Source of the DNA: Candidatus Nanoarchaeia archaeon
Lineage (GTDB): Archaea; Nanobdellota; Nanobdellia; SCGC-AAA011-G17; JACPNG01
DNA: 64,000 bases
Reading direction: 5' to 3'
NCBI GenBank assembly: GCA_028713535.1
Contig: JAQTOC010000001.1
Coordinates: 49,573 to 113,572 of the forward strand
The position numbers and the translations under genes are program-made. Each line of letters opens with the position of its first letter. The first letter of the stretch is position 1. A model generated the notes under the pieces. It saw nothing but the letters and a program-made list of their open reading frames with translations, was not told the origin of the DNA and did no database searches. This document shows, one piece after another, positions 1 through 63,864 of the stretch.

Positions 1-2
1 TA

Positions 3-122
3 ATCAGTAGAGAATTAAATATACCTTGCATTGTTGGAGTGCATGGAATAACGAGTTCGATAAAAGATGGAGATATAATTGAAGTGGATGCAAACAAAGG
101 TATTGTCAGGAAATTAAAATGA
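3..122 (+). CDS. C-terminal fragment (5' partial) of PEP-utilising-enzyme mobile (swivel phospho-His) domain protein, paralog 0
   Basis: Frame-3 translation ...ISRELNIPCIVGVHGITSSIKDGDIIEVDANKGIVRKLK* matches the C-terminal end of the PEP-utiliser domains in the downstream paralogs; stop overlaps next ATG (ATGA). Confidence 0.55.
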   Translation: MSRELNIPCIVGVHGITSSIKDGDIIEVDANKGIVRKLK

Positions 123-1186
123 AACTCATAAAATATCTCACTAGGGATTATAGTCTACTTGAGCATAATCTTGTTATAAAAACTCTTCTTAAGGACAACC
201 CGGAAAACGAAGGAATATATTATAATTCTGTCGTAGACGTATTTCAGAAAGGATTTATGGATATTTATGTCCATGGAGAAGATGTTGAGCACAACAAGAA
301 ATTCATTCTGGATAATGTAACCAGAAATAAATTATTTTTGATAAGTAAGGTTGAGGAAGGGATAGCATTAGCAAAGGAATTGGTTAATCTTCCTATGAAC
401 TTGCCAAATAAAATAAAGGAGATGATTGATGAGGAAATTATTAATGAATTAGATAGTTTATTTGAAAAGTTACTTGGTTTTGCAACTTCTATTGAACTGG
501 TACATTGTACAGAAAGGTCTGGAGTTAAGCTAAACCAGAAAGAAATCGAGACTATTGCGCAATTTAATGATCTCAGAAAGGAGGCATACTTAAAATATCT
601 GCAGTTTTTTATTTTAGTAACTAACAAGATTGCAAGGAAAAAAGGACTTTTATCCAAAGACTTGTCTTATCTTACTTTTGATGAGATTATTTCTTTTTTA
701 GAAGGAAAACTAAGCAAGAAAACTGTTGATGAGCTTCAGAATAAAAGAAGAATAAAGTATATCATGAGGGTTGATAATGGAAAATGGAAAGTTATTACAG
801 ATAATTTTGACAGGGAGTATGAAAAACTTAAAAAATTTATTTACGAGGACTTGTTAAGTTCTGAGGTTAAAGGTTTACCAATCAATAAAGGCGTTGTAAG
901 AGGAAAGGTTAAGGTTGTTACACAGAAAACACCTTTTAATGAAATTCCAAAAGGGAGGATCATTGTGACCTATCAAACAAAACCAGATATGGCGCCTTTT
1001 CTCAGGAAATCAATTGCGATAGTAACAGACGAAGGTGGGATTTTATGCCATGCAGCAAACTTAATCAGGGAATTTAAGATAGTTGGGATTGTTGGAACGA
1101 AAAATGCTACGAAAGTTTTTAAGGATGGAGATTTGATTGAAGTTAACGCAGATAACGGAACAATAAGGAAGATAAAACAAATTTAA
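119..1186 (+). CDS. PEP-utilising-enzyme mobile-domain protein (C-terminal swivel phospho-His domain; N-terminal ~260 aa of unknown function), paralog 1
   Basis: C-terminal motif IVTDEGGILCHAANLIREF...VGTKNATKVFKDGDLIEVNADNG = PEP-utilisers signature (TDxGGxxxHAAI[VI]ARE). Confidence 0.65.
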   Translation: MKLIKYLTRDYSLLEHNLVIKTLLKDNPENEGIYYNSVVDVFQKGFMDIYVHGEDVEHNKKFILDNVTRNKLFLISKVEEGIALAKELVNLPMNLPNKIKEMIDEEIINELDSLFEKLLGFATSIELVHCTERSGVKLNQKEIETIAQFNDLRKEAYLKYLQFFILVTNKIARKKGLLSKDLSYLTFDEIISFLEGKLSKKTVDELQNKRRIKYIMRVDNGKWKVITDNFDREYEKLKKFIYEDLLSSEVKGLPINKGVVRGKVKVVTQKTPFNEIPKGRIIVTYQTKPDMAPFLRKSIAIVTDEGGILCHAANLIREFKIVGIVGTKNATKVFKDGDLIEVNADNGTIRKIKQI

Positions 1187-1199
1187 AGCAAAAAAGATA

Positions 1200-2492
1200 T
1201 TGAATATGAACAAATTTTTGGAAGAAGTAAGGAAATTAGACTGGGAGGAGTGGCTGGAGAGGCATTCCAGCCCGTTGGTTACCTCTCTTTTCATAGATGC
1301 AGGAAGGGAAAACTCTTTTAAAAAGATTGGAATCCCAAACATGGAAATCAAAGCAATGTTATACCAGGAGGGGAGGTGGTATGAGTACGGGGCTTTATGG
1401 GAAACCTTTAACAAACGAACGAATAGTTATCTTAAGAAACACACTATCTTTGACATTACCAATGATCTTGATAAATTCTATAAAAGCAAAAAAAGAAGGC
1501 TTAAAATTTTAGCTAACAGTAAAAAGTTTTCACTTGAACAATTTGAAGAAGTTTATGATATTTTATTGGTTCCTGTATCATATATTCTTTTAGCTCACGC
1601 ATTAGAAAGAGTATATATTAAAAGATTGAATGAGGAAGTCCCCAGGTATGTTAAAAAAGATATTGACAAATTTATCGGGGATGCCAGTTTTCCTGTCAAG
1701 AAAGCGGCATATACATTGATGGAGGAAGCAATACGTAAAAATGTTAATACTAAAAAAATCATTGAGGAATTTGGATGGTTGAAAACAAGAGGCATCTCTG
1801 ATGAACCATTTGATGTGAAAGATATAAACAAACTTAAAGCGAAGGTAAATGCGGGAACTCCTTTTAAATCTCCAGAGATCCCAAAACCGCTTAGATCTCT
1901 TTTTGACGAAGTAAAAGAGTTAGTTTATTTCAGGAGTGCAAGAACCGATGTCCTTTATGAATTCTTATACCTGTCTCGATCAATTTTTAAAAAGGTCTCT
2001 AAATTTTACAAGATTCCTTATAATGATTTAGAGAACTATTCAGCCCAGAGTCTGGTAAACAAAAAACCAAGGAAATATCCTTCTGGATTAAACTTTGTTT
2101 TTTATAATGGAGGCTTGTTTGTCAGCGATAAACCGATAGTAAACTCAACGAGTATCAAAGAAAAAGATTTTGTTGAAGGAAGAGTTGTTTATTCAGGAAA
2201 AGCAAAAGGTATTGTTAAGATTGTTAGGACTATTAATGATTTATCTAAGGTTAAGGAAGGAGATGTGTTGGTTGCTCCAATGACTTTCCCTTCTTTTATT
2301 ACAGCTATGAAGAAGTCTGTCGCCTTTGTTACAGATGAGGGGGGTTTAACTTGTCATGCTGCCATTGTTGCTAGGGAAATGAAGAAGCCATGCGTGGTCG
2401 GAACTAAAATTGCAACAAAAGTATTTAAAGACAATGACTTAGTTGAAGTTGATGCTATAAATGGCATAGTTAGGAAGATAAATATTATATAA
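1200..2492 (+). CDS. PEP-utilising-enzyme mobile-domain protein, paralog 2
   Basis: C-terminal FVTDEGGLTCHAAIVAREMKKPCVVGT...DLVEVDAINGIV; same architecture as 119..1186. Confidence 0.65.
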   Translation: MNMNKFLEEVRKLDWEEWLERHSSPLVTSLFIDAGRENSFKKIGIPNMEIKAMLYQEGRWYEYGALWETFNKRTNSYLKKHTIFDITNDLDKFYKSKKRRLKILANSKKFSLEQFEEVYDILLVPVSYILLAHALERVYIKRLNEEVPRYVKKDIDKFIGDASFPVKKAAYTLMEEAIRKNVNTKKIIEEFGWLKTRGISDEPFDVKDINKLKAKVNAGTPFKSPEIPKPLRSLFDEVKELVYFRSARTDVLYEFLYLSRSIFKKVSKFYKIPYNDLENYSAQSLVNKKPRKYPSGLNFVFYNGGLFVSDKPIVNSTSIKEKDFVEGRVVYSGKAKGIVKIVRTINDLSKVKEGDVLVAPMTFPSFITAMKKSVAFVTDEGGLTCHAAIVAREMKKPCVVGTKIATKVFKDNDLVEVDAINGIVRKINII

Positions 2493-2547: not shown

Positions 2548-3297
2548 ATGGTAAACATTAATGCATTTCTGAGAAAATATGAAAATCTTAAAGGTAAACC
2601 CCTTCGTGATATAATGCCCCGTTTAGCTAAAGAAGGGAGATATCCCATATCTATATCTAAGTCAATGGAGGAGAGGTTGAATGTTTTACAGGTTGAAGGA
2701 GGGGACCGCTTGATCTTGTATAATTTAACTAATCTTTGGTGGAATGAAACCATCGTTACAGGAGATGCAGTTTTTAGAGATCCTTCTTCTGGAAAGTTTA
2801 AGATTGAGTTGTCTTCAAGAACCATGAGAGATATAAATTCCAAAAGTAAAATATACAGGGGGGTTTTAGTTGTTTCTAAGGAGGCATATAATCAGATTGA
2901 AGGACCAGAATTTACTGAAGAAGAAGTTAGTAAATATACTGAAAGGGGCTTGTATTTAGAAGACCTTTCTATTTTCCAAAATCCGATTTTGAATGAATTA
3001 GTACCAAACTCAGAATTACTTGAGAAATATGCAAGGGCAGTTTTTGATGATCTTAATAATAATTTTAAAGGAGATATTATAGATGGGATTATCCCACTTG
3101 GGTTAAGGCGTATACCTGAGCCTGATTGCGGTAAAGATATGTGTTTTGGGAGTTTTTTAACGATAGCTCCAGTTCGCGGATCATTTAGACTTGATCCGGG
3201 TGAACCACGATGTAGCCCGATTATTTCTGAGATTAATTGTGCTAGTTTTAAAGAAAACACAGAGCTATTGTATGGAAATTTCTTTGTTGAGAAGTAG
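2548..3297 (+). CDS. hypothetical protein
   Basis: 249-aa ORF, coding-like composition, no recognisable motif. Confidence 0.4.
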   Translation: MVNINAFLRKYENLKGKPLRDIMPRLAKEGRYPISISKSMEERLNVLQVEGGDRLILYNLTNLWWNETIVTGDAVFRDPSSGKFKIELSSRTMRDINSKSKIYRGVLVVSKEAYNQIEGPEFTEEEVSKYTERGLYLEDLSIFQNPILNELVPNSELLEKYARAVFDDLNNNFKGDIIDGIIPLGLRRIPEPDCGKDMCFGSFLTIAPVRGSFRLDPGEPRCSPIISEINCASFKENTELLYGNFFVEK

Positions 3298-3458: not shown

Positions 3459-4274
3459 ATGAGCCTTAAAGAATCTTTAAAAAATAAATTAACCAAGAAA
3501 GAACTTAGTTTAGTTCCAAGGTCTTTTGACCAGATTGGAAACATAGCTATTTTTTCTGAATTTCCTAAAGAATTAAAGAAGAAAGAAAAATTAATTGGAG
3601 AAACTCTAATCAAACTAAATAAAAATCTAAAAACTGCTGCAATCAAATCTGAGAAACATTCAGGAAGATTTAGAACTAAGAAAGTAAGAATTATTGCAGG
3701 AGAAAAAACAAAAGGAACTACACACAAAGAAAGCGGAGTCATTTTAAAGCTTGATGTTGAGAAATGCTATTTTTCACCTAGAACTGGAAGTGAGAGATTA
3801 AGAATAGCTAAACTAGTAAAAAAGAATGAATCTGTTTTGGTGATGTTTTCAGGCATCTCGCCACTGCCTCTTGTCATTTCTAAAAATTCCAAGGCCAAGG
3901 AGATTTATGGAATTGAAATTAATCCTGTTGCACACAAATATGCAGAAGAAAATATTAAATTAAACAAAGTAAAGAATGTTTTCTTGTATAAAGGCGATGT
4001 TAAAAAAATACTGCCTAAATTAAAGAAATTTGACAGAATATTAATGCCACATCCAACAGATGCAGCTTCTTATCTGGACTTAGCATTTAAACACTTAAAG
4101 AAAAATGGAATCTTGCATTTCTATGATTTTCAGGAAGAAGATAATTTTGACAAGGCTGTTGAAAAGATAAAGAAAAAAGCAAAAGGAAAGGTTCTAAGAG
4201 TTGTAAAATGCGGAGACTACGGTCCTAGAATCTACAGAATCTGTGTGGATTTTAGATTTGAGAAATACTTATAA
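3459..4274 (+). CDS. tRNA (m1G37) methyltransferase Trm5 / Taw2-like (Met-10+ family) class I SAM methyltransferase
   Basis: Motifs VLVMFSGISPLPL (SAM motif I), IEINPVA (NPPY-like), C-terminal fold pattern typical of archaeal Trm5/TYW2. Confidence 0.7.
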   Translation: MSLKESLKNKLTKKELSLVPRSFDQIGNIAIFSEFPKELKKKEKLIGETLIKLNKNLKTAAIKSEKHSGRFRTKKVRIIAGEKTKGTTHKESGVILKLDVEKCYFSPRTGSERLRIAKLVKKNESVLVMFSGISPLPLVISKNSKAKEIYGIEINPVAHKYAEENIKLNKVKNVFLYKGDVKKILPKLKKFDRILMPHPTDAASYLDLAFKHLKKNGILHFYDFQEEDNFDKAVEKIKKKAKGKVLRVVKCGDYGPRIYRICVDFRFEKYL

Positions 4275-4296
4275 GTTTAAATTATTCTTAAGAATC

Positions 4297-4623
4297 ATGG
4301 CTTTGGAAGAACTGCAGAGAGAAGTTGATAAGTGGACAGCCCAGTTTACCCCCCAATACTGGCAGGCTCATGAAATTCTGGCGAGATTAATGGAGGAAAC
4401 AGGAGAATTAGCAAGGGAAGTGAACCATTTGTATGGGCCAAAAAAGAAAAAAGACAGTGAGGACAAAAGAGATTTGGGGGATGAGATGGCAGATGTTATC
4501 TTTACTTTAATGTGCTTAGCTAATTCTAAAAATATTAATCTTGATGATGCCTGGAAGAAAATGATGGAGAAGTGCTGCAAGAGAGATAGTGAGAGATACA
4601 AGAAGAGAGAGGATTTAGTTTAG
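4297..4623 (+). CDS. MazG-like nucleotide pyrophosphohydrolase
   Basis: ELQREVDKW...ETGELAREV...LGDEMADVIFTLMCLAN...LDDAWKKMMEK, the EExxE/ExxD MazG pattern; ATG at 4297 chosen over longer ORF. Confidence 0.7.
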   Translation: MALEELQREVDKWTAQFTPQYWQAHEILARLMEETGELAREVNHLYGPKKKKDSEDKRDLGDEMADVIFTLMCLANSKNINLDDAWKKMMEKCCKRDSERYKKREDLV

Positions 4624-5094: not shown

Positions 5095-5535
5095 ATGGCT
5101 AACGATAAGAGAGTTGGAGCTGGAATTGGGGTAATGATGCTTAGAAATAATAAGGTTTTATTGGGAAAACGCCACGATAATCCTGGCAAAGCTGATTCTG
5201 CATTACACGGAGAGGGAACCTGGACAATGCCTGGGGGGAGGCTTGAGTTTGGAGAAAGCTTTGAGGATGGGGCTGAAAGAGAGGTTTTAGAGGAGACTGG
5301 AATTAAATTAAGGAAATTTGGAGTTATCTGTGTAAATAATGAAAGACTAAAAGATGCTCATTTTGTCACAATTGGATTGTTTTCAGAGGATTTTGAGGGT
5401 GATCCAAGAGTTATGGAGCCGGATGAAATAACTGAATGGAAATGGTTTGAGCTGGATAAATTGCCTAACAATATTTTTTTCCCAAGCAAGAAGATTCTTG
5501 AGAATTACAAGAGAAAGAAATTTTATATTGGTTAG
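5095..5535 (+). CDS. NUDIX hydrolase
   Basis: Nudix box GGRLEFGESFEDGAEREVLEETGI. Confidence 0.85.
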   Translation: MANDKRVGAGIGVMMLRNNKVLLGKRHDNPGKADSALHGEGTWTMPGGRLEFGESFEDGAEREVLEETGIKLRKFGVICVNNERLKDAHFVTIGLFSEDFEGDPRVMEPDEITEWKWFELDKLPNNIFFPSKKILENYKRKKFYIG

Positions 5536-6604: not shown

Positions 6605-7924
6605 TTATTTCTCAAAACCAAATTCTTTTTTAGGAGCAATTGCGTGAGGAGCTTCTCCACCATGCCAGGTAAACCTGGGTCTAATCCTTACTGGATACAA
6701 TCTTTCTGAGTTATCATCCAATAAAATTGCTGAGCCAGCCAATCTTGGCAAGTTATTCAAACTTTTTTGCAGATCTGTAATCAAATAAGACTGCATCATT
6801 GAATTAAGGGCATCAATGTCTGGCTTGGCAGTTAGTCTATGACTTAGAACAATATCTGCCTGAGTTATAACATCCTTGTGAATTTCTCCTGGCTGCTGAG
6901 TAGCTAAGACCATTGAGATTCCAGGTTGACGACCTTCTCTTATTAACTGAACTAAGGTATCTGTTGCAGGAGTTTTTCCTTCTTTTGGAAGAAATTCATG
7001 GGCTTCATCAATTAAAACCCAAACCAAGGGCATATCAAGTTTTTTTTCTTCCTCAAATAATCTTGACCTTGTTTGTATGTCTGACAGTTCTTCTTCTTTT
7101 CTTGAGGTCATTCTTTCTTCAAGAAGTTTTTTGCATATTAAGCCAATAACAAGAGATTTTATTCCCCAGCTTCCGGTTCCTTCTTTATAGCATGAAATGT
7201 CAATTATAGAAACTTTTCCTTTTCCAACTATGTTTTTTATTGGAACGCTTTCCTTGTCAAATAGACCCCAGGTCAAGGCTGCCCTAAACCTGTTTTCTGT
7301 TGCGTCCCTTACATTTTGCTCTGAGCGTTTATCTGATTGTGTTCTTGAAATAATATCATCCATCGAATAATCTTTTAGATTTTCCATCAAATCCTGGATA
7401 ACTCTTTCAATCAAAACTCCTATTGGGGAGTTTATATCAACACTGAAAACATTGCACCAGTCTCCTGCTGTCAACTCAGAAGGCTTTAATGCAAATGAAA
7501 AGTCTGCTGGAATTCCTTTTTGCCTGTAATCATTGAAATAACCTTTTGGAGTGTAAATATCAACATTCAGTCCTTTTGGAGAAATGCCCCATTTTTTTAA
7601 CAAATCTTCTTCTTTCTGGTTTGGATATTTCATTGTCCAGAAAATTCCCATTGTGTCAAAGATTAAAACTGATAACCTGTCTTTTATGTCCTTTGGAAGA
7701 TCTGAAACTTCTTCTGCTATTACACCAAGAGAAAAACTTTTTCCAGAGCCTTTTTTTCCAGAAACTAATATTGTATGGGCGCCGTTTACATCTAAATAAA
7801 CATTGTTAGCAAGGGAGGTAACCTCTCCCATCTTTACATATTGTTTTCCGATAAATATTGTTGCTTCTTTCCCATATTTTTTAAGTTCTGGTTCTGATCT
7901 TCCTATTATTATATCCTGGGTCAT
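6605..7924 (-). CDS. HerA/FtsK-superfamily P-loop ATPase (DUF87 'AAA-like' domain)
   Basis: Walker A GKKGSGKS, Walker B VWVLIDEAHEF, ~440 aa; start overlaps the stop of upstream 1450-aa surface protein (ATGA). Confidence 0.7.
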   Translation of the reverse strand: MTQDIIIGRSEPELKKYGKEATIFIGKQYVKMGEVTSLANNVYLDVNGAHTILVSGKKGSGKSFSLGVIAEEVSDLPKDIKDRLSVLIFDTMGIFWTMKYPNQKEEDLLKKWGISPKGLNVDIYTPKGYFNDYRQKGIPADFSFALKPSELTAGDWCNVFSVDINSPIGVLIERVIQDLMENLKDYSMDDIISRTQSDKRSEQNVRDATENRFRAALTWGLFDKESVPIKNIVGKGKVSIIDISCYKEGTGSWGIKSLVIGLICKKLLEERMTSRKEEELSDIQTRSRLFEEEKKLDMPLVWVLIDEAHEFLPKEGKTPATDTLVQLIREGRQPGISMVLATQQPGEIHKDVITQADIVLSHRLTAKPDIDALNSMMQSYLITDLQKSLNNLPRLAGSAILLDDNSERLYPVRIRPRFTWHGGEAPHAIAPKKEFGFEK

Positions 7925-29034: not shown

Positions 29035-31281
29035 ATGAGAAAGGGGTTTTGGATTGTCTTTTTATTGTCTATTGAATTAGTAAGCGCGCAGGAAGTCATG
29101 ATTGGAGGAAAAAGCTATTCATTATTATTTATTTCTCCTTTGATTGTTGTTGGATTAATCATATTATTTTTCCTGTTTTCATTTCTATTAAAGAGAATTT
29201 CAAAAGTAAAACTCCCAAGCTTAAAACTAAAAGAAAAGCACATTAGCTTATTCAGCAAGAAAGAGGAAAAACTTGGATTAGGAACTGTATTTGACATAAA
29301 CAAGGAACTTGAGGAGTTTGAGAAAAGAGCAAAGAAACTTGAGACAAAAGAAGCGTTTAACGAGCTTATTGGATTGTTAAAGGATTATCTTTCATATAAA
29401 TTAGGAATGAGCAAGCAGTTTACATTTGAGGAGATAGAGCCAATTCTTGAGAAAAAAGCAAAGAAGTTTGTTCCTTTATCAAAAGAAATTGTGCATTTGA
29501 GGTACAGCGGGAAAGAAATAAACAGGGAAGAGGTAAACAAACTAATTGATTCTTTTAGCAGACTGGCAAGATCTGAAAAAGCTGAGAAACCAAAAGAAGA
29601 GAAAGAAAGAAGAATAACATTATTTGACAAGATTGACATTAAGAATGTCGGCTTAAAAAATTTAAGAGTTTCTTTTAATAATTTATTCAAAAGAACAAAG
29701 GAAAAACAAAGGCCTGTTGTTCTTGGGTTTAAGGTTAAGGATCTTAATATTGAGGTCACAAGAAAACACAGCAAGTTTAATCCTGTTAATGTTTATTATG
29801 AATTAAAAGATTATCTTGAGAAAAGAAAGAATGAAAGCAACAGGGATTTAGTAGAGAGACTTATTAGAAGAGGAAGAAGAACTGTAAAAAGAGACTGGAT
29901 GGATGCAAGCAGGATTTACAACAAGGCATTAGGGATTTATTACAAGATTCCGGTTTCTGATGAAGAGAAAGTTGCTGGTTCTTTAATTGATTTATATGGG
30001 GAAGTGGAAAGGGCAAAGCTTGATGAAGAAAGCAAGCACATGGCAGAGATCACAGAGAAAATACAGGGAATACTTGAGAAGCAGGGAATTGTAAAAGAAG
30101 AGCCTGAGGTTGAAATTGTCAAGCACAGCCATGAAAGCGTCAAACACGTAAGAAAATCTGTTTTGGAATGGAGAAACAACTTAAGCAAGAGAGTTGAGGA
30201 CTTAAAGGGAGCTGTTAAAACAAAGTTCAAGGACATAGAAAACGATGTGGAAAAGGATATTCATTTATTGTTTATTAAGCCAAAGACTGAAAACAAACCA
30301 CTGAGCCATGAAAAACTCAAGAACAATCTAAGGACTTTAAAAGTTGATATACCTAAACAACATAGAGATAAATTATTTACTTTTGAATTACCTCAGAAAG
30401 AAATCTCAAGGATATCCAATGATATAACCAAGAAGAAAATACACGCTGCAAAAGGAAAGGAGTTTAGTTTACCAATATTGAAGGCTGAAAATCCGGTTTT
30501 GATTAAACTGCAAGAATTTGGAGATCACATACATGCAATTGAAAGAGAAGGTTTGGTTGAATTAAAATTAAGAGAGAGAGAACTTGCCAAAGGATTAAGG
30601 GCAATTTTGCATTTCCATAAAAGAAGGCATGACGAGCATGAACTGCCTATTGAAAGATTTGTTTTGGGAAAAGAATTACAGCCTGTTTATGATTCATTGC
30701 CTTTGGTAGAAGAAAACAAGGAAAAAGTTAATTCCTTACTGATGCAGAAAGAGAAATTACTTAACAAATATAAAAGAGCACAGATTGAGGCAAAGAAAAA
30801 ATACATTGAGCATTTGCTTGGCAGGATTGATGACTATGAAAGAAGAAGGATTGATGTCATAAGACAGGAAATAAAGAAGCCTGTTGTCAAGATAAGAAGC
30901 AAGAATGTGGATGAGCTCAGGAAACAGGAACAGGACATTATGGACAGGCTTGTTGGCTTTGAGAAGAAAAAGATGGAAGACATAAAAGGGAACATAAAAG
31001 AATCAATAAGAGAATTTGAGAAAGAAGAACACAGGATTGGAAAGCCTGAATGGAAAGTTGAGGCTGAGAGAGCAAGGAGCAGAGTTTCAAGAAATGTCAA
31101 TGCATTAAGCAAACAGGAAAAAGAGTTATTCAACAAGCTGACTAATGTGCAGAAAGATGTAAAACTGGTTGAGCCTGCATGGAAAACAAAACTGAATAAT
31201 GAAAAGAAAAAAACAACAAAAGATATTGAGAAATTAAGCAAGGAACAGGCAAAACTGTTCAAGAAAATTGATGGACTTTAA
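29035..31281 (+). CDS. membrane-anchored 748-aa Lys/Glu-rich coiled-coil protein
   Basis: Signal + TM (LLFISPLIVVGLIILFFLFSFLL) followed by ~690 aa of charged heptad-like sequence. Confidence 0.6.
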   Translation: MRKGFWIVFLLSIELVSAQEVMIGGKSYSLLFISPLIVVGLIILFFLFSFLLKRISKVKLPSLKLKEKHISLFSKKEEKLGLGTVFDINKELEEFEKRAKKLETKEAFNELIGLLKDYLSYKLGMSKQFTFEEIEPILEKKAKKFVPLSKEIVHLRYSGKEINREEVNKLIDSFSRLARSEKAEKPKEEKERRITLFDKIDIKNVGLKNLRVSFNNLFKRTKEKQRPVVLGFKVKDLNIEVTRKHSKFNPVNVYYELKDYLEKRKNESNRDLVERLIRRGRRTVKRDWMDASRIYNKALGIYYKIPVSDEEKVAGSLIDLYGEVERAKLDEESKHMAEITEKIQGILEKQGIVKEEPEVEIVKHSHESVKHVRKSVLEWRNNLSKRVEDLKGAVKTKFKDIENDVEKDIHLLFIKPKTENKPLSHEKLKNNLRTLKVDIPKQHRDKLFTFELPQKEISRISNDITKKKIHAAKGKEFSLPILKAENPVLIKLQEFGDHIHAIEREGLVELKLRERELAKGLRAILHFHKRRHDEHELPIERFVLGKELQPVYDSLPLVEENKEKVNSLLMQKEKLLNKYKRAQIEAKKKYIEHLLGRIDDYERRRIDVIRQEIKKPVVKIRSKNVDELRKQEQDIMDRLVGFEKKKMEDIKGNIKESIREFEKEEHRIGKPEWKVEAERARSRVSRNVNALSKQEKELFNKLTNVQKDVKLVEPAWKTKLNNEKKKTTKDIEKLSKEQAKLFKKIDGL

Positions 31282-32561
31282 TTTTTTCTCATTTTCATAA
31301 ATACATAATTCACAGGATTTTTTAATTTTTTACACAAAGGATCATCGCAATTAATACCTAGATCCTTGTAATAAGCTTCATTATCGCAGTTTGGAGGCAG
31401 TATATTTTCTTTTGTTTTTCTGTGCCAGGAAATCTGGCTGAGAATATAACCTGTCCTTAATGGCTCGTAGTTATTATTGTTCCATTCTAATAATCTTTTT
31501 TCTATTTCATCAAGAGACCAGCCCATCTGCTTCAGGAAGTTAATCAAAACGAAAACAGCTCTTTTCCTTCCGTCTTTTTCAATTCCTTTCAATATCTGCT
31601 TGATGCATGGAGGAAAATAATCTTCCTTTATTGCAACTTTTGGAATTTCAAAATCTCTTTTTATCTGGATGTTTTCCTTGGATGTTAAAATCTCTTTCAT
31701 GTATTCCTTGTTTGACCTTACTTTGAAATCCATTGCCTGGATTATCAAGGACTTTGCTTCATCAGGCTCAAAAGATTTAAGGAATTCTATTTCAGGCTCA
31801 ATATTTTTCATCTGCGCATTGTTTATGTTAAAACTTCTTGGATCTTTTACAGGGATACTTATTAGGTTAGTTTTTTCATTTATAGAATATGCAGACCTGT
31901 ACAAATGCCTTGGAGATATTAAAATAGAATCTATTCCAATGACTGAGAAAGGATCAAACACATTGTTTCTTATTAAATCCTTTTCCTCTTTCTTTGTGCT
32001 TTTTTTTATTTCATCAATCGTATTTAAACTTAATATTGATTCTGACAATGGCTTTCTTATCATTTCTTTTAGATATTCTGAAATTGCCCTTATTCCATCT
32101 GGGAATAAACATTTTGTTTCTTTTTCATCCACCTTTCTTGGGAATGAGTTTGAGGAAATTCCAATATGAAAGCCAGAACCGCCTGAAAACTTGGAGTAAA
32201 CATGGTTAACATCATGAAATTTTATTGCTTCTATCAACAAAGACGCACAGACTTTGGAATATTCAATGAATTTTGTGTCCACATCAAGGATGCAGTCCCA
32301 GCCAATCCTTAAATCATTTAATTGCTGGGGGGTCATGCTTGGCTTTAACTGCATTGGGTCTGACCAGGTCTCTTCTGAAATATGAAAAGAAGTAACTCCC
32401 TGCTTTGCGAGTTCAAGAACATCTGATTCGTACATTAAAATATCTGGGCGCTTGCCAAATCCTTTATTGTAGAACTGAACGCCAACTTCCTTGTTCTTTG
32501 CCTGGGAAACTATATTATTCTGAATTTCCCTTCTTGAATAATACTTTAGGATTGGATCCAT
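31278..32561 (-). CDS. priS: DNA primase, fused catalytic small subunit (PriS) + PriL C-terminal Fe-S-domain-like module
   Basis: PriS motifs ILDVD and SGGSGFHIGI; C-terminal PPCIKQIL (PriL PPC motif) plus Cys pair NCDNEAYYKDLGINCDDPLC. Confidence 0.75.
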   Translation of the reverse strand: MDPILKYYSRREIQNNIVSQAKNKEVGVQFYNKGFGKRPDILMYESDVLELAKQGVTSFHISEETWSDPMQLKPSMTPQQLNDLRIGWDCILDVDTKFIEYSKVCASLLIEAIKFHDVNHVYSKFSGGSGFHIGISSNSFPRKVDEKETKCLFPDGIRAISEYLKEMIRKPLSESILSLNTIDEIKKSTKKEEKDLIRNNVFDPFSVIGIDSILISPRHLYRSAYSINEKTNLISIPVKDPRSFNINNAQMKNIEPEIEFLKSFEPDEAKSLIIQAMDFKVRSNKEYMKEILTSKENIQIKRDFEIPKVAIKEDYFPPCIKQILKGIEKDGRKRAVFVLINFLKQMGWSLDEIEKRLLEWNNNNYEPLRTGYILSQISWHRKTKENILPPNCDNEAYYKDLGINCDDPLCKKLKNPVNYVFMKMRKN

Positions 32562-50141: not shown

Positions 50142-51164
50142 TTATAAACCTTGTTTTTCCAGTTCTTTTAATTCAAAGTCAACCATTATTTTAACAAGTT
50201 CATTGAAGGATGTGTTTGGTTTCCAACCCAGTTTTATTTTTGCTTTTGTATAATCTCCAAGTAAAATGTCGACTTCTGCAGGCCTGAAAAACTGAGGGTC
50301 AATATGTATTATTGGCATTCCGTTCCAGTAGCCTTTTTCATCAAATCCAGAACCGCGCCATTCAAAGTTAGACATACCAAGACATTTACAGGATTCCTCG
50401 ACGAATTCCCTTATTGAGTGGGTTTCGTTTGTTGCTATCACATAATCATCCGGAGAATCCTGCTGCAGCATCAGCCACATTGCTTCAACATAATCTTTTG
50501 AATAACCCCAGTCCCTTTTTGAGTCTAGATTGCCAAGCCTTAGCTCACTTCTTACTCCTTTTTTTATTTCTGCGAGAGCCCTGGCTACTTTTTTTGTTAC
50601 AAATTCCTCTCCTCTTCTTGGAGATTCGTGATTGAATAAAATTCCGTTGCAGCAGAACATACCATAAGCATCCCTGTATAATTTAGCTGTAAAGAAAGCA
50701 AACTGCTTTGCTATTCCATATGGGCTTCGGGGATTAAATGGAGTTGTTTCCCTTTGAGGAATCTCCATAGCTTTTCCGAACATTTCAGAGCTGGATGCCT
50801 GGTAGAACCTAATGTGTCTTTCTGGATCTATCTTTTTTATGCATTCAAGAAGATTAAGAACTGCAATTCCTGTTACTTGGGTAGTATAATCTGGCTGGTT
50901 AAATGAAGCCTGTACGAATGACTGGGCTGCCAAATTATAGACTTCGTCTGGTTTTGAAATCAGCAATGCCCTTAACAATGAATGAGTATCTGTTAAATCA
51001 CCATCTATTAATGTTATCTTGTCTTTTAAATGTCTAATCCTGCTTAAGTTATCTGTACTTGATCTTCTTACTAGACCATGGACATTATACCCCTTTTCCA
51101 ACAATAACTCTGCTAGGTAAGAACCGTCCTGGCCAGTAATGCCTGTAATGAGGGCAGATTTCAT
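50142..51164 (-). CDS. gmd: GDP-mannose 4,6-dehydratase
   Basis: MKSALITGITGQDGSYLAELLLEKGYNVHGLVRRSS; start at 51164 rather than 51251 (which would overlap tRNA-Glu). Confidence 0.9.
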   Translation of the reverse strand: MKSALITGITGQDGSYLAELLLEKGYNVHGLVRRSSTDNLSRIRHLKDKITLIDGDLTDTHSLLRALLISKPDEVYNLAAQSFVQASFNQPDYTTQVTGIAVLNLLECIKKIDPERHIRFYQASSSEMFGKAMEIPQRETTPFNPRSPYGIAKQFAFFTAKLYRDAYGMFCCNGILFNHESPRRGEEFVTKKVARALAEIKKGVRSELRLGNLDSKRDWGYSKDYVEAMWLMLQQDSPDDYVIATNETHSIREFVEESCKCLGMSNFEWRGSGFDEKGYWNGMPIIHIDPQFFRPAEVDILLGDYTKAKIKLGWKPNTSFNELVKIMVDFELKELEKQGL

Positions 51165-51223
51165 GCAATAGTTAAGATTAAAAAGGTTTATATTGTTTTT
51201 TATGATTAAGAATATGGTTTTTT

Positions 51224-51298
51224 GCTCCGGTAGTGTAGTCCGGTCAATCACATGGGATTCTCGATCCTATAACCCGGGTTCGAATCCCGGCCGGAGCA
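51224..51298 (+). tRNA. tRNA-Glu (anticodon CTC)
   Basis: 7-bp acceptor GCTCCGG/CCGGAGC, T-arm CCGGG-TTCGAAT-CCCGG, anticodon stem TGGGA/TCCTA with loop TTCTCGA; no encoded CCA. Confidence 0.8.
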
Positions 51299-51402
51299 TA
51301 TACTTTTTGGATAATAAATGGGATATTCAACTGAAATTTATTACTCAATACAAATGACTTTTTTGTGGGAAATTTTTTAAGTTAGGTCTTACCCTCAATT
51401 GG

Positions 51403-59995: not shown

Positions 59996-60820
59996 TTAAT
60001 AAATATTTTCCTTTTTGACTATATAGAATATTTCGTTTTTTGTTTTGAATTTAATTGGATGTTTTACTAATTTGTTAAACCACGCCAGCCTTTTTACATT
60101 TAGATTTTTCCTGTACAGTGTCTTTGTGGGGAAGCTTATAACGAAGTATTTTGTAGAAATTGACTTTAGAAGTCTTCTTGAAATGCCTATTTTCAGTGTT
60201 TCAAGATTATCCAGGGCTTTAAAGATGAAACATATATCTGATTCTGGGAAGTTATTATTTTCTATGAGATTTTTTTGAAGAACTTCTGAATGAATGTTAT
60301 AAACTGGCTCTATTATGGAAAAATATTCTTTTAAGAATCTTATATCTTCTTTATTTAATTCAACTGCAATATAATTTATTTCTTTTAGGTTCATAAAGGG
60401 TATTGATACCGGATTAATGCCCGACGCCAAATCCAAGATTGTTCTTGGTTCTCCTGTTATTTCAAATATTTTTTTATAGATTTCCTCATAATCTTCCAGT
60501 CTTTCTTTTGAAGAGACATGCGTGTTTAAAATTTTTTTGTAGATTTCTTTGTTTAAAGGATCTTTTTTCAGCTGTTTTAATAGTAAATTTCTTTTTTTTA
60601 TTTCAGGATTAAATGCCCCGTAGACCTGCTCGAGATTCTTTCTTATTTCCTTTACCGCATTTTCATACTGCTTTCTCGAATTCAAATCAATCTTATTTTC
60701 CCTGAGATAGGATTCAATAATAGGCATGAGTATTTTATTATCAAGTTTTCTTATTATTTTATTAGAAACATTGGAATAAGATTTTTCTCTTTTGATATCA
60801 GTTATGATCTTGTTCAGCAT
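59996..60820 (-). CDS. putative class I SAM methyltransferase, possibly FmrO/ArmA/Rmt-like 16S rRNA methyltransferase family
   Basis: ILDLASGINP (cf. LDxxCGxNP motif I), ICFIFKAL, FVISFPTKTL blocks resembling ArmA/RmtB as recalled from memory; unverified. Confidence 0.35.
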   Translation of the reverse strand: MLNKIITDIKREKSYSNVSNKIIRKLDNKILMPIIESYLRENKIDLNSRKQYENAVKEIRKNLEQVYGAFNPEIKKRNLLLKQLKKDPLNKEIYKKILNTHVSSKERLEDYEEIYKKIFEITGEPRTILDLASGINPVSIPFMNLKEINYIAVELNKEDIRFLKEYFSIIEPVYNIHSEVLQKNLIENNNFPESDICFIFKALDNLETLKIGISRRLLKSISTKYFVISFPTKTLYRKNLNVKRLAWFNKLVKHPIKFKTKNEIFYIVKKENIY

Positions 60821-61744: not shown

Positions 61745-63196
61745 ATGGAAGATTTTAAAAATCTGGTTAAAGGGAAAGAATTTTACAAGTTTAAGTATTC
61801 TCCAAAGAAACAATATTTTTTCCCAATTTATACAATGGATTTATCATTAGTTTCTGAAAAACACAAAGAGTTTTTTGGAATGAACCTTTCTATGGTTGTT
61901 TTTTATGAGAAAAACGGAGAAGTTTCCTTTTATTATCCGAAGCAGGAATTTGACAGCCTTGCAAGCTTTCTTATTGACAGCTTCAAGGATAAAAAATATT
62001 TTAATGAGATTGTCCATGAGATTAAAAAGTGCAATAAAACTCTAAATAAACTCATAGATAAACTAGATGACTTGGAAAAAGAGATTAGCGATGAAAGGAT
62101 CCTTGAGATTTATTCTGATTATATCAAAACGCTTGTTGAATTCAGAATTTTTGCATTCATCCCCAATGTGGTTTCGATGATGGACTTTGACATAATGGAA
62201 ACATACAGGAATCTACTTTCAAGAGATGTTTCAAAACAGGATTTTTCTGTTTTGACTTCTTCTGATGAACTTTCTTTGTCTACACTTGCTGAAAAAGAAC
62301 TTTTGGAATTAGTTGCCAAGAATAAATTAGGTGATAAATATCTGAGTGAATGGATAGACAAATGGGGTTATCTGTATTATTATTACACTGGACCCCTTCC
62401 TGATTTGGAATCTGTCAGAAAGATGATATCTGACTTATGCAAGACTTATATGAACCCTGAAACGAGACTAAAAGAAATTAAAGGATATGAAAAAGAGATT
62501 AAATTAAAGAAGAAAGACCTTATTAAGAATTTAGAATTAACAAAACAGGATGTTTATCTGCTGGATGTTATTTCCTATCTTAATTATTACAAGCTTGAGA
62601 GAAAAGAGCTTATGCAGAAGAGTTATGTTGCTTTTGATAATTTATTTAGGATACTGGAAAAGAGAACAGAAATTAAAGTTGATGACCTTAAATTTTTGAC
62701 TCTGGACGAGACAAAAAGCTTATTGGAAGGAAAAAACTTTAACCCATTAATCGGGAAAAGAAAAAAAGAATTTTGCTATGTTGCAGCAGAAAATGAACTT
62801 AATTTTTTAGAGGACAGACATGCACAGGAATTGATTGATTCATTAAAAATATTTGTTTCTTCTGAAAGATTGCTTATTGCTTATTCTTCTGATGAAGTTA
62901 TTAGGGCAAAACTGATTATAGTTAACACAAAAGAAGATTTGAAGAAAGTGGAGGATATCAAAGAGCCATTTATCCTTGGAAGCCATTCTACTTCTCCTGA
63001 TTTGTTGCCTGCAATGGTTAGGTCTGCCGGTATAATTACTGAGATAGGAGGGATGACAAGCCATGCAGCTGTAGTTTCAAGAGAATTAAAGAAACCGTGC
63101 ATAGTCGGTTTCAAGAGTTTATTCAAGAAATTCAAGGAAGGAGACATGGTTGAATTAGATACTAAAAAAGGAGAGGTAAGGAGGGCTGGAAAATGA
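61745..63196 (+). CDS. PEP-utilising-enzyme mobile-domain protein, paralog 4
   Basis: C-terminal IITEIGGMTSHAAVVSRELKKPCIVGF...DMVELDTKKGEV; stop overlaps next ATG. Confidence 0.65.
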   Translation: MEDFKNLVKGKEFYKFKYSPKKQYFFPIYTMDLSLVSEKHKEFFGMNLSMVVFYEKNGEVSFYYPKQEFDSLASFLIDSFKDKKYFNEIVHEIKKCNKTLNKLIDKLDDLEKEISDERILEIYSDYIKTLVEFRIFAFIPNVVSMMDFDIMETYRNLLSRDVSKQDFSVLTSSDELSLSTLAEKELLELVAKNKLGDKYLSEWIDKWGYLYYYYTGPLPDLESVRKMISDLCKTYMNPETRLKEIKGYEKEIKLKKKDLIKNLELTKQDVYLLDVISYLNYYKLERKELMQKSYVAFDNLFRILEKRTEIKVDDLKFLTLDETKSLLEGKNFNPLIGKRKKEFCYVAAENELNFLEDRHAQELIDSLKIFVSSERLLIAYSSDEVIRAKLIIVNTKEDLKKVEDIKEPFILGSHSTSPDLLPAMVRSAGIITEIGGMTSHAAVVSRELKKPCIVGFKSLFKKFKEGDMVELDTKKGEVRRAGK

Positions 63197-63864
63197 GTTT
63201 GAAAATTAAGTGGATGGGATGGGCGAATTTTGTTGTTGAGTCTGGAAAAGAAGTCATTGCTTTTGACCCATTTTTTGAGTCTGACAAAAAAGCGGATGTT
63301 ATTTTTATTTCGCATGGGCATCCTGACCATTGTGATAAACAAGCAATTGAATCTTTGAAAAACGAAAATACTGTTTTTGTTACAAATAACTCTGTTGCTA
63401 AACAAATGAATTTTGGAGATGTATCTGTATTGAATACTGGAGACAAAAAGAAGATTAGGAATTTAAATGTTGAAGCGGTTTACGCATATAATCTTAATAT
63501 ACCTAACCATCAAAAAGGAGTTGACACTGGTTTTATTGTTGAGTTTGGCGGAAAAAGGATTTACCATACAGGAGATTCTGATTTAACAGATGAGATGAAG
63601 AATGTAAAAAACATTGATGTTTTGTTCTTGCCTGTTGGCGGAACTTTTACAATGGGAACTGACATGGGATTGGAAGCTATTAAGAGTATCAAACCCAAGA
63701 TTGTAATACCCATGCATTATGGGGAGATTGATGTTGTTTTTGGCGGCGAGAAGATGCATTTGAAACTTGATGCCGATGTTGGGGCATTCAAGAAGAAAGT
63801 TGAATCTGAAACTGCAACTAAAGTTTTTGTTGTGAAACCAGGACAGGAAATTGAAATAAACTAA
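63193..63864 (+). CDS. metallo-beta-lactamase-fold hydrolase (UPF0173-like)
   Basis: FISHGHPDHCD (HxHxDH), HTGDS, PMHYG. Confidence 0.8.
   Translation: MSLKIKWMGWANFVVESGKEVIAFDPFFESDKKADVIFISHGHPDHCDKQAIESLKNENTVFVTNNSVAKQMNFGDVSVLNTGDKKKIRNLNVEAVYAYNLNIPNHQKGVDTGFIVEFGGKRIYHTGDSDLTDEMKNVKNIDVLFLPVGGTFTMGTDMGLEAIKSIKPKIVIPMHYGEIDVVFGGEKMHLKLDADVGAFKKKVESETATKVFVVKPGQEIEIN

Follow-up and report, generated by a model that had tools for sequence, protein, structure and literature searches.

Swivel-domain proteins encoded in a DPANN archaeal genome as probable acceptor subunits of split dikinases

A 64,000-nucleotide stretch of the genome of a Candidatus Nanoarchaeia archaeon (contig JAQTOC010000001.1, positions 49,573 to 113,572), referred to here as the window, carries four genes whose products end in the mobile phospho-His (swivel) domain of phosphoenolpyruvate (PEP)-utilizing enzymes. 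We consider it probable that each of these genes encodes the acceptor (substrate) subunit of a split, ATP-dependent dikinase of the rifampin phosphotransferase (RPH) type, this subunit being a variable, mostly helical substrate-binding domain followed by a phospho-His swivel. The four genes, numbered copies 0, 1, 2 and 4, are arranged as follows, with the N-domain being the part of each protein that precedes the swivel.

Copy 0, 3 to 122, plus strand: the last 39 codons, ISRELNIPCIVG...VDANKGIVRKLK and a stop codon; the 5′ part is cut off by the window start.
Copy 1, 119 to 1186, plus strand: 355 aa, a short-class candidate acceptor with a 245-aa N-domain; swivel domain (PF00391) at nt 944–1159, catalytic His311 at nt 1049–1051, conserved Arg153 at nt 575–577.
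Copy 2, 1206 to 2492, plus strand: 428 aa from the ATG, with a predicted RPH-type substrate-binding domain; swivel domain at nt 2253–2465, catalytic His codon at nt 2355–2357, conserved Arg codon at nt 1941–1943.
Copy 4, 61745 to 63196, plus strand: 483 aa, with a predicted RPH-type substrate-binding domain; swivel domain at nt 62960–63172, catalytic His440 at nt 63062–63064, conserved Arg286 at nt 62600–62602.

In each of the three full copies, Pfam places PF00391 at the extreme C-terminus, with E-values of 4.2e-18, 1e-25 and 2e-22 and scores of 65.1, 89.5 and 78.8 bits for copies 1, 2 and 4, respectively (gathering score 23.1), and the proteins terminate no more than ~10 residues past this domain. 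The swivel histidines His311, His384 and His440 were checked at the codon level. PF00391 apart, Pfam yields no domain in copies 1, 2 and 4; neither the ATP-grasp domain PPDK_N (PF01326), named for pyruvate phosphate dikinase (PPDK), nor the TIM barrel PEP-utilizers_C (PF02896) was found. Copy 0 can be followed on Logan contig L001, which extends 601 nt to the left of the window; there it spans L001:1–723 and encodes 240 aa that include the stretch TNEGGLLSHAAI and keep an intact His motif, GGLLSHAAI. Copy 2 is identical to NCBI protein P0001. The mechanical open reading frame (ORF) begins instead at TTG 1200, and the catalytic residue is His384 in the 428-aa protein and His386 in the 430-aa mechanical ORF. 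Copies 1 and 2 are annotated in the database as "PEP-utilizing enzyme". The stop codon of copy 0 overlaps the start of copy 1 in an ATGA at 119–122, the gap from copy 1 to the ATG of copy 2 is 19 nt, and a six-frame scan of the 64-kb window with a hidden Markov model (HMM) revealed no fifth swivel domain. A preliminary description of this DNA had reported four genes with a C-terminal phospho-His swivel, the overlap of the first two, and the absence of a PEP/pyruvate TIM barrel, and all of these observations are borne out: the four genes lie where they had been placed, PF00391 is present in each full copy and Pfam is blank for the barrel in copies 1, 2 and 4.

The best sequence matches of these proteins in the PDB and in NCBIfam are PEP synthases, and the matches run through the swivel domain only. 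Such a pattern is compatible with truncated PEP synthase or PPDK pseudogenes that retain only the central swivel. Pairwise BLAST between the copies aligns the swivel at 47–52% identity together with at most ~100–140 residues upstream of it, and the remaining N-terminal parts are unalignable in pairs. Global identity between pairs of N-domains reduces to short segments and is uninformative. Profile comparison of the N-domains alone with hhalign reveals a helical domain common to copies 2 and 4 (96% probability, E = 3e-9, 269 columns), whereas for copy 1 the alignment to the copy-4 family (96.7%) is confined to the final ~74 columns of the N-domain. The earlier view of mutually divergent N-termini without an ATP-grasp therefore stands as regards the ATP-grasp and the general lack of alignability, but it has to be amended for the domain common to copies 2 and 4 and for the shorter relationship of copy 1.

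Proteins with the N-domain of copy 2 form a tight family: a word-indexed search found 32 of them, and 1.84 billion representatives contained only 69 clusters. Its members share the invariant motifs FIGDASFPxKKN and ELVYFRTARTD, and 17 of the 44 columns that are invariant over 31 sequences fall in the N-domain. For the N-domain of copy 1, a search of 5.8 billion sequences returned only copy 1 itself, and its orthologue L030_11267 has an N-domain identity of 36%. The NCBIfam alignment of copy 1 to rifamycin phosphotransferase spans residues 157–349, and so begins ~90 residues before the swivel, at a score far under the cut-off; phmmer reaches RPH from copy 1 through the swivel only.

Structure prediction provides the link that sequence comparison does not. 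In the predicted structures, the N-domains are helical and RPH-like and contain no ATP-grasp, and the full-length models match RPH best, not enzyme I. The rifampin-binding domain (RIF-BD) of RPH is the sole solved structural relative of the modeled N-domain of copies 2 and 4, and the models pack a RIF-BD-type substrate domain against the C-terminal swivel. An RPH-type substrate-binding fold is thus predicted for copies 2 and 4. These results run counter to the proposal that the N-domains are ordinary PPDK nucleotide-binding domains left over in decayed PEP synthases. The ORFs are all intact, the N-domains are not frameshifted ATP-grasp sequence but are predicted to be helical and RPH-like, neither PPDK_N nor the TIM barrel is found, the N-domain carries its share of the invariant columns of the copy 2 family, and the architecture recurs in 116 complete genes from 33 loci. 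The copies are intact members of a conserved family, and a pseudogene origin is extremely improbable.

To place the window genes among their relatives, we used a set of 33 loci, of which 31 came from a one-genome-per-species scan with the copy-2 N-domain motifs and two (L033 and L036) are copy-4 orthologue loci. The scanned GTDB representatives do not include the window's own genome. The ORFs of these loci, which are at most 21 kb long, were called anew and searched with swivel and N-domain HMMs. By most record labels, the 31 loci belong to DPANN archaea and to bacteria of the Candidate Phyla Radiation (CPR), being assigned to Woesearchaeota or other archaea or to Berkel-, Uhr-, Kerfeld-, Taylor-, Staskawicz-, Magasanik- and Kaiserbacteria, Paceibacterota and Saccharibacteria. 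Nine loci carry other, unconfirmed record labels: Gammaproteobacteria, Methanosarcinales, Planctomycetota or just "bacterium". For the loci labeled Methanosarcinales, Gammaproteobacteria or Planctomycetota (L002, L007, L012, L014, L017, L025 and L026), the nearest relatives in this set are DPANN/CPR sequences; these oddly labeled array contigs may come from mislabeled bins, or the family may be more widely spread.

The copy-2 orthologue nearly always lies within a one-strand array of swivel-domain genes. The 33 loci have a median of 3 and a maximum of 8 swivel genes, with at least three in 19 loci and at least five in 11, and 48 of 89 adjacent array pairs overlap or are no more than 20 nt apart. 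The short class to which copy 1 belongs (300–399 aa) accounts for 14 of the 116 complete array proteins. A recurrent array protein of ~315 aa is a stand-alone PPDK_N (Pfam E = 1e-98). A PPDK_N gene is present in 14/33 loci, never more than one per locus, and five of these loci carry it as a fusion with an acceptor. The 746-aa fusion in L011 joins PPDK_N, a copy-2-type N-domain and a swivel, which is the complete RPH architecture, and an exhaustive search also shows fusion proteins of 722–1470 aa. Giant fusions of 970–1313 aa combine PPDK_N with two acceptor modules and have two swivels per protein (L008:7586–11278, L010:1–3501, L029:3869–7810 and L033:12098–15010), and the array appears to be partly welded into a single polypeptide at these loci. 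Relatives of copy 4 are rare, comprising two proteins (45% and 42% identity) and one metagenome locus; both proteins lie within PPDK_N-bearing arrays, and the L033 contig is clearly archaeal, encoding Alba, ribosomal protein S17e and diphthamide synthase.

We aligned 126 array proteins over the 170 residues before the swivel and the swivel itself, and checked the codons of the window copies. The catalytic swivel His is kept in 125/126 proteins. The only strongly conserved position in the N-domain is an Arg (101/126; R153, R246 and R286 in copies 1, 2 and 4), and in these three copies an acidic residue lies two positions after it (RKE, RTD and RKE, respectively). The second phosphotransfer in RPH requires an Arg–Glu pair (Arg666/Glu667) in the substrate domain, and distant RPH clades retain this pair but lose the residues that contact rifampin (PMC4844700). 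By analogy, the conserved N-domain Arg may be the counterpart of Arg666. Because the catalytic core is conserved while the pocket has diverged past recognition, and because the copies differ almost wholly in the substrate-binding domain, each paralog probably has its own substrate.

The same division of labor is known from the two-component dikinases HpeHI (Rhodococcus), PpsAB phenylphosphate synthase (Thauera) and CreHI (Corynebacterium), where an ATP-grasp subunit is separate from a subunit comprising the substrate domain and a C-terminal swivel (PMC12167813). The layout of HpeH, PpsA and CreH, with substrate binding and swivel but no ATP-grasp, is also that of the window proteins, which have the His motif GGxxxHAA in common with them. 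RPH is likewise the only solved structure that aligns with HpeH beyond the swivel (PMC12167813). In RPH, the order is ATP-grasp (residue 1 to residue 314), RIF-binding domain (327–754) and swivel (767–865) (PMC4844700), so that the window proteins correspond to its C-terminal two thirds (PDB 5HV1/5FBS) with no fused ATP-grasp. Identity to RPH is 14–15%, and the N-domains of ~250–375 aa are shorter than the ~430-aa RIF-binding domain. PEP synthase and PPDK have a homologous swivel, locally up to ~50% identical, and the ATP-grasps of the related loci are of their PPDK_N type, but the window proteins have no TIM barrel, no fused nucleotide-binding domain and a substrate domain of another fold.

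Sequence-level tests did not assign the window proteins to any of these groups. Scores against rifamycin phosphotransferase (NF041857) are 68, 51 and 35 bits against a cut-off of 999, the three-domain architecture is lacking, and nothing points to rifamycin as a substrate. With the PpsA-like NCBIfam PRK08296 series, only the swivel aligns (81–88 bits against a cut-off of 578). As the tests for RPH, the PpsA-like models and PEP synthase all failed, we regard the window proteins as a distinct, shorter lineage that would function like the HpeH/PpsA acceptors and whose predicted fold is that of the C-terminal part of RPH. Other differences from the two-component dikinases concern context. HpeHI, PpsAB and CreHI are one-to-one pairs, whereas the relatives of the window genes have many acceptors per ATP-grasp; the hosts are DPANN/CPR organisms rather than aromatic-degrading bacteria; and no carboxylase or aromatic-catabolic genes lie near the window copies. 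The separate ATP-grasp that characterizes those enzymes has a counterpart in 14 of the 33 related loci but not in the 64-kb window.

PpsAB, HpeHI and RPH share a cycle in which ATP is presented by the ATP-grasp and attacked at its β-phosphate by the swivel His, with release of AMP and Pi, after which the swivel moves back and phosphorylates the bound substrate (PMC12167813). A corresponding cycle can be proposed for the window proteins. A separate PPDK_N ATP-grasp subunit of ~315 aa would bind ATP, and the swivel His of the acceptor would take the β-phosphate as AMP and Pi leave. The swivel would then swing back to its own N-domain and phosphorylate a hydroxyl of the bound substrate, with the conserved N-domain Arg assisting this second phosphotransfer. 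The ATP-grasp would act in trans on several acceptors. This reading is anchored in the domain content, the predicted fold, the conserved His and Arg, the arrays, and the adjacency and fusion of the ATP-grasp in relatives. It goes beyond them in proposing that the cycle operates in the window's organism, that several acceptors depend on one ATP-grasp, and that small molecules are the substrates. On the basis of the analogy and of the gene fusions in relatives, the swivel proteins would not be self-sufficient but would need the separate PPDK_N subunit. A small-molecule-phosphorylating system, as first suggested from the letters of this DNA, remains the best reading; the suggestion is to be revised in that the proteins would not work alone and that the ATP-grasp partner, which had not been foreseen, is absent from the window.

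The many paralogs with a single ATP-grasp also look like a branching relay, and an alternative is that the proteins are phospho-relay or carrier proteins whose N-domain docks another protein, in the way that enzyme I docks HPr through its helical subdomain. The swivel domain is common to enzyme I, and subdomains of the RPH substrate domain are weakly similar in structure to components of the phosphotransferase system (Stogios et al., PMC4844700). However, the window shows no HPr, EIIA or further relay component and none recurs across the loci, the preference of the full-length models for RPH speaks against an enzyme I-like role, and a conserved N-domain Arg suits a catalytic phosphotransfer site. 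We consider a relay function quite improbable.

Several observations weigh against the assignment of the window genes as dikinase acceptors. One concerns the phosphate donor: no PPDK_N ATP-grasp was found in the 64-kb window, either with a six-frame HMM built from the related-locus partners (E up to 10) or by Pfam on 25 window proteins, and in the seven loci labeled archaeal the 10 kb around the copy-2 orthologue contain no ATP-grasp. That an ATP-grasp supplies phosphate in the window's organism is thus proposed by analogy. The link of the N-domain to RPH comes from predicted structures; the N-domain profile has no sequence-level match to any solved structure in the PDB (E up to 10), and members of the copy-2 family dominate the alignment behind the copy 4 model. 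For residues 1–165 of copy 1, no relative was detected beyond an orthologue or two. The window proteins are also considerably smaller than HpeH and PpsA (355–483 aa versus ~600–640 aa) and fall far under every NCBIfam cut-off.

The genes that flank the window copies bear on what the proteins might do. Those nearest to copies 2 and 4 are as follows.

ORF, 2548 to 3297, plus strand: 249 aa, 56 nt 3′ of copy 2; also called as a gene on L001.
MazG-type pyrophosphohydrolase gene, 4243 to 4623, plus strand, and NUDIX pyrophosphohydrolase gene, 5095 to 5535, plus strand: 1.7–2.6 kb downstream of copy 2.
FmrO-family rRNA methyltransferase, 59996 to 60820, minus strand: E = 1.3e-22; ~900 nt from copy 4 and on the opposite strand.
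Metallo-β-lactamase (MBL)-fold hydrolase, 63193 to 63864, plus strand: 223 aa; Lactamase_B_3 (E = 2.5e-33, 115.8 bits); HGHPDH in the translation.

Searches of Pfam and NCBIfam leave the ORF at 2548–3297 without a match, and none of the related loci compared has a homologue of it; the ORF and copy 2 may share an operon. NUDIX genes of the same cluster as that of the window are also found near the arrays in L013 and L017. Aminoglycoside-resistance 16S rRNA methylases make up the FmrO family.

The MBL gene had previously been described as translationally coupled to copy 4. The coupling itself is real in that an ATGA at 63193–63196 joins the stop codon of copy 4 to the MBL start, with a GGAGG-like stretch upstream, and the MBL fold is confirmed. 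A defined partnership is not, as the gene is absent from both orthologue contexts: downstream of the copy-4 orthologue lies a gene for a 209-aa HD-domain protein in L033 and one for a HAD hydrolase in L036. With an MBL in 0/2 independent contexts, and with no homologue of the window MBL in the related loci compared, we dropped the MBL as a conserved partner of copy 4. The protein resembles the UPF0173/PRK00685 metal-dependent hydrolases in its Lactamase_B_3 fold, its HxHxDH motif and its length of ~220 aa, but its score against NCBIfam PRK00685 (125 bits) is under the cut-off of 144, and its pairing with a dikinase gene is not kept in orthologous loci. We know of no functional link between UPF0173/PRK00685 hydrolases and dikinases.

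What does recur is a variety of phosphohydrolases. Genes of the His-phosphatase family lie in or beside the arrays of six or more loci, and HD and HAD genes in those of two loci each, in addition to the MBL of the window; a homologue of the L033 HD protein sits inside the CPR array of L024. The sites of His_Phos_1, HD and HAD genes include L008, L015, L025, L029, L036:3089–4003, L033:11472–12101, L024:15141–15755, L036:11496–12092 and L032:9068–9697. These varied enzymes may be non-orthologous stand-ins for the role of the window MBL. The Hpe pathway proceeds by phosphorylation, carboxylation and a later dephosphorylation (PMC12167813), and the recurrent phosphohydrolase neighbors would fit a similar logic of phosphorylation followed by processing, which we take as a lead only. 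Genes for an M20 peptidase and for a protein resembling aspartate/ornithine carbamoyltransferase (OTCace_N only) also recur in or beside the arrays of several CPR loci, as does a cytidylyltransferase-like gene in three loci. Neighbors of cluster c1 occur in L012, L019, L021, L022 and L024, and those of cluster c3 in L012, L019 and L022.

This context helps to separate two further explanations from the one that we favor. The first is that the proteins are ligases like PigC and RedH, in which phosphate activates a substrate for condensation and the product is not a phosphate ester. Phosphoryl activation is reportedly a known use of this enzyme class, and PigC and RedH are among the weak NCBIfam matches both of the window proteins and of the ATP-grasp partners from related loci, with the grasp at the N-terminus and the swivel at the C-terminus, as expected. 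However, the scores are 40–59 bits against a cut-off of 1300, the matches are limited to the swivel region, no biosynthetic gene cluster surrounds the arrays, and the recurrent phosphohydrolase neighbors indicate products that are phosphate esters. We judge this explanation very improbable.

The second, detoxification, is the main alternative for the role of the proteins, which would then be kinases that inactivate antibiotics or toxins in the strict sense of RPH, with the arrays detoxifying secondary metabolites of the host or the community. The fold relative is an antibiotic kinase, hypervariable substrate domains around a conserved core would suit a defense repertoire, and the FmrO-type rRNA methyltransferase lies ~900 nt from copy 4. 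In a survey, rph-like genes are also reported as part of the resistance-like gene set of CPR genomes (PMC8651080). Against this, the rifamycin phosphotransferase equivalog scores remain at 35–68 bits versus a cut-off of 999, no resistance context is kept around the arrays, and the recurrent neighbors are metabolic: carbamoyltransferase-like, M20 peptidase, cytidylyltransferase and phosphohydrolase genes. Furthermore, the copy 2 family spans two domains of life at 33–49% identity, which suits a fixed cellular substrate rather than an arms race. Detoxification in this sense is therefore unlikely, and the assignment as acceptor subunits of small-molecule dikinases is preferred. As to their role, our guess would be the trapping or activation of host-derived metabolites, possibly with a subsequent phosphohydrolase step; metabolite trapping through phosphorylation has been proposed by the authors of the HpeHI study (PMC12167813).

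The remainder of the window is that of a DPANN-type genome. It has a G+C content of 35.5% and encodes archaeal markers, including topoisomerase VI-like ORFs, a ribosomal protein cluster, an aIF1A-like ORF and a fused PriS–PriL primase, the last being a single 426-aa ORF (31278–32561, minus strand) that matches both DNA_primase_S and DNA_primase_lrg in Pfam. A ~20-kb run on the minus strand (6605–27302) contains very large ORFs of 1450, 768, 407, 405, 412, 1127 and 1320 aa, and a HerA-like ATPase lies within it at 6605–7924. Ig-like, PKD, CARDB or fn3 domains are present in all four ORFs scanned from this run, those of 405–768 aa, and the run probably serves as a gene cluster for surface structures or attachment. 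A tRNA-Glu gene (51223–51299, plus strand) overlaps by 29 nt the mechanical GTG start of a GDP-mannose 4,6-dehydratase ORF (50142–51251, minus strand); because the Pfam match begins only at residue 33, the true start of this ORF is probably further inside.

A broader proposal, which we put forward tentatively, is that one ATP-grasp charges interchangeable acceptors, arrayed in numbers of up to eight or more, with phosphohydrolases (His-phosphatase, HD, HAD and MBL) interspersed. Such a modular, one-to-many platform for small-molecule phosphorylation would be characteristic of ultra-small DPANN/CPR episymbionts, and the window would represent a small, scattered instance of it. Full-text literature searches, whose coverage was incomplete, found no description of many-acceptor arrays or of their concentration in DPANN/CPR; they yielded only a tally of rph-like genes for CPR genomes, given in passing (PMC8651080).

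The related loci spend 10–15 kb on these arrays despite the minimal, host-dependent nature of DPANN/CPR genomes. To our knowledge, dikinases have so far been described as single proteins or one-to-one pairs. If a single ATP-grasp does serve many pockets, this would be a new organizational principle for dikinases, and the one-to-many platform would occupy a noticeable share of a genome of ~1 Mb. The family is tractable: its members are small soluble proteins, the conserved His and Arg are clear targets for mutagenesis, and an assay for the release of AMP and Pi is applicable. The diversified pockets could supply new regioselective kinases, and, if the proposal is correct, would provide a handle on what DPANN/CPR organisms take up or neutralize.

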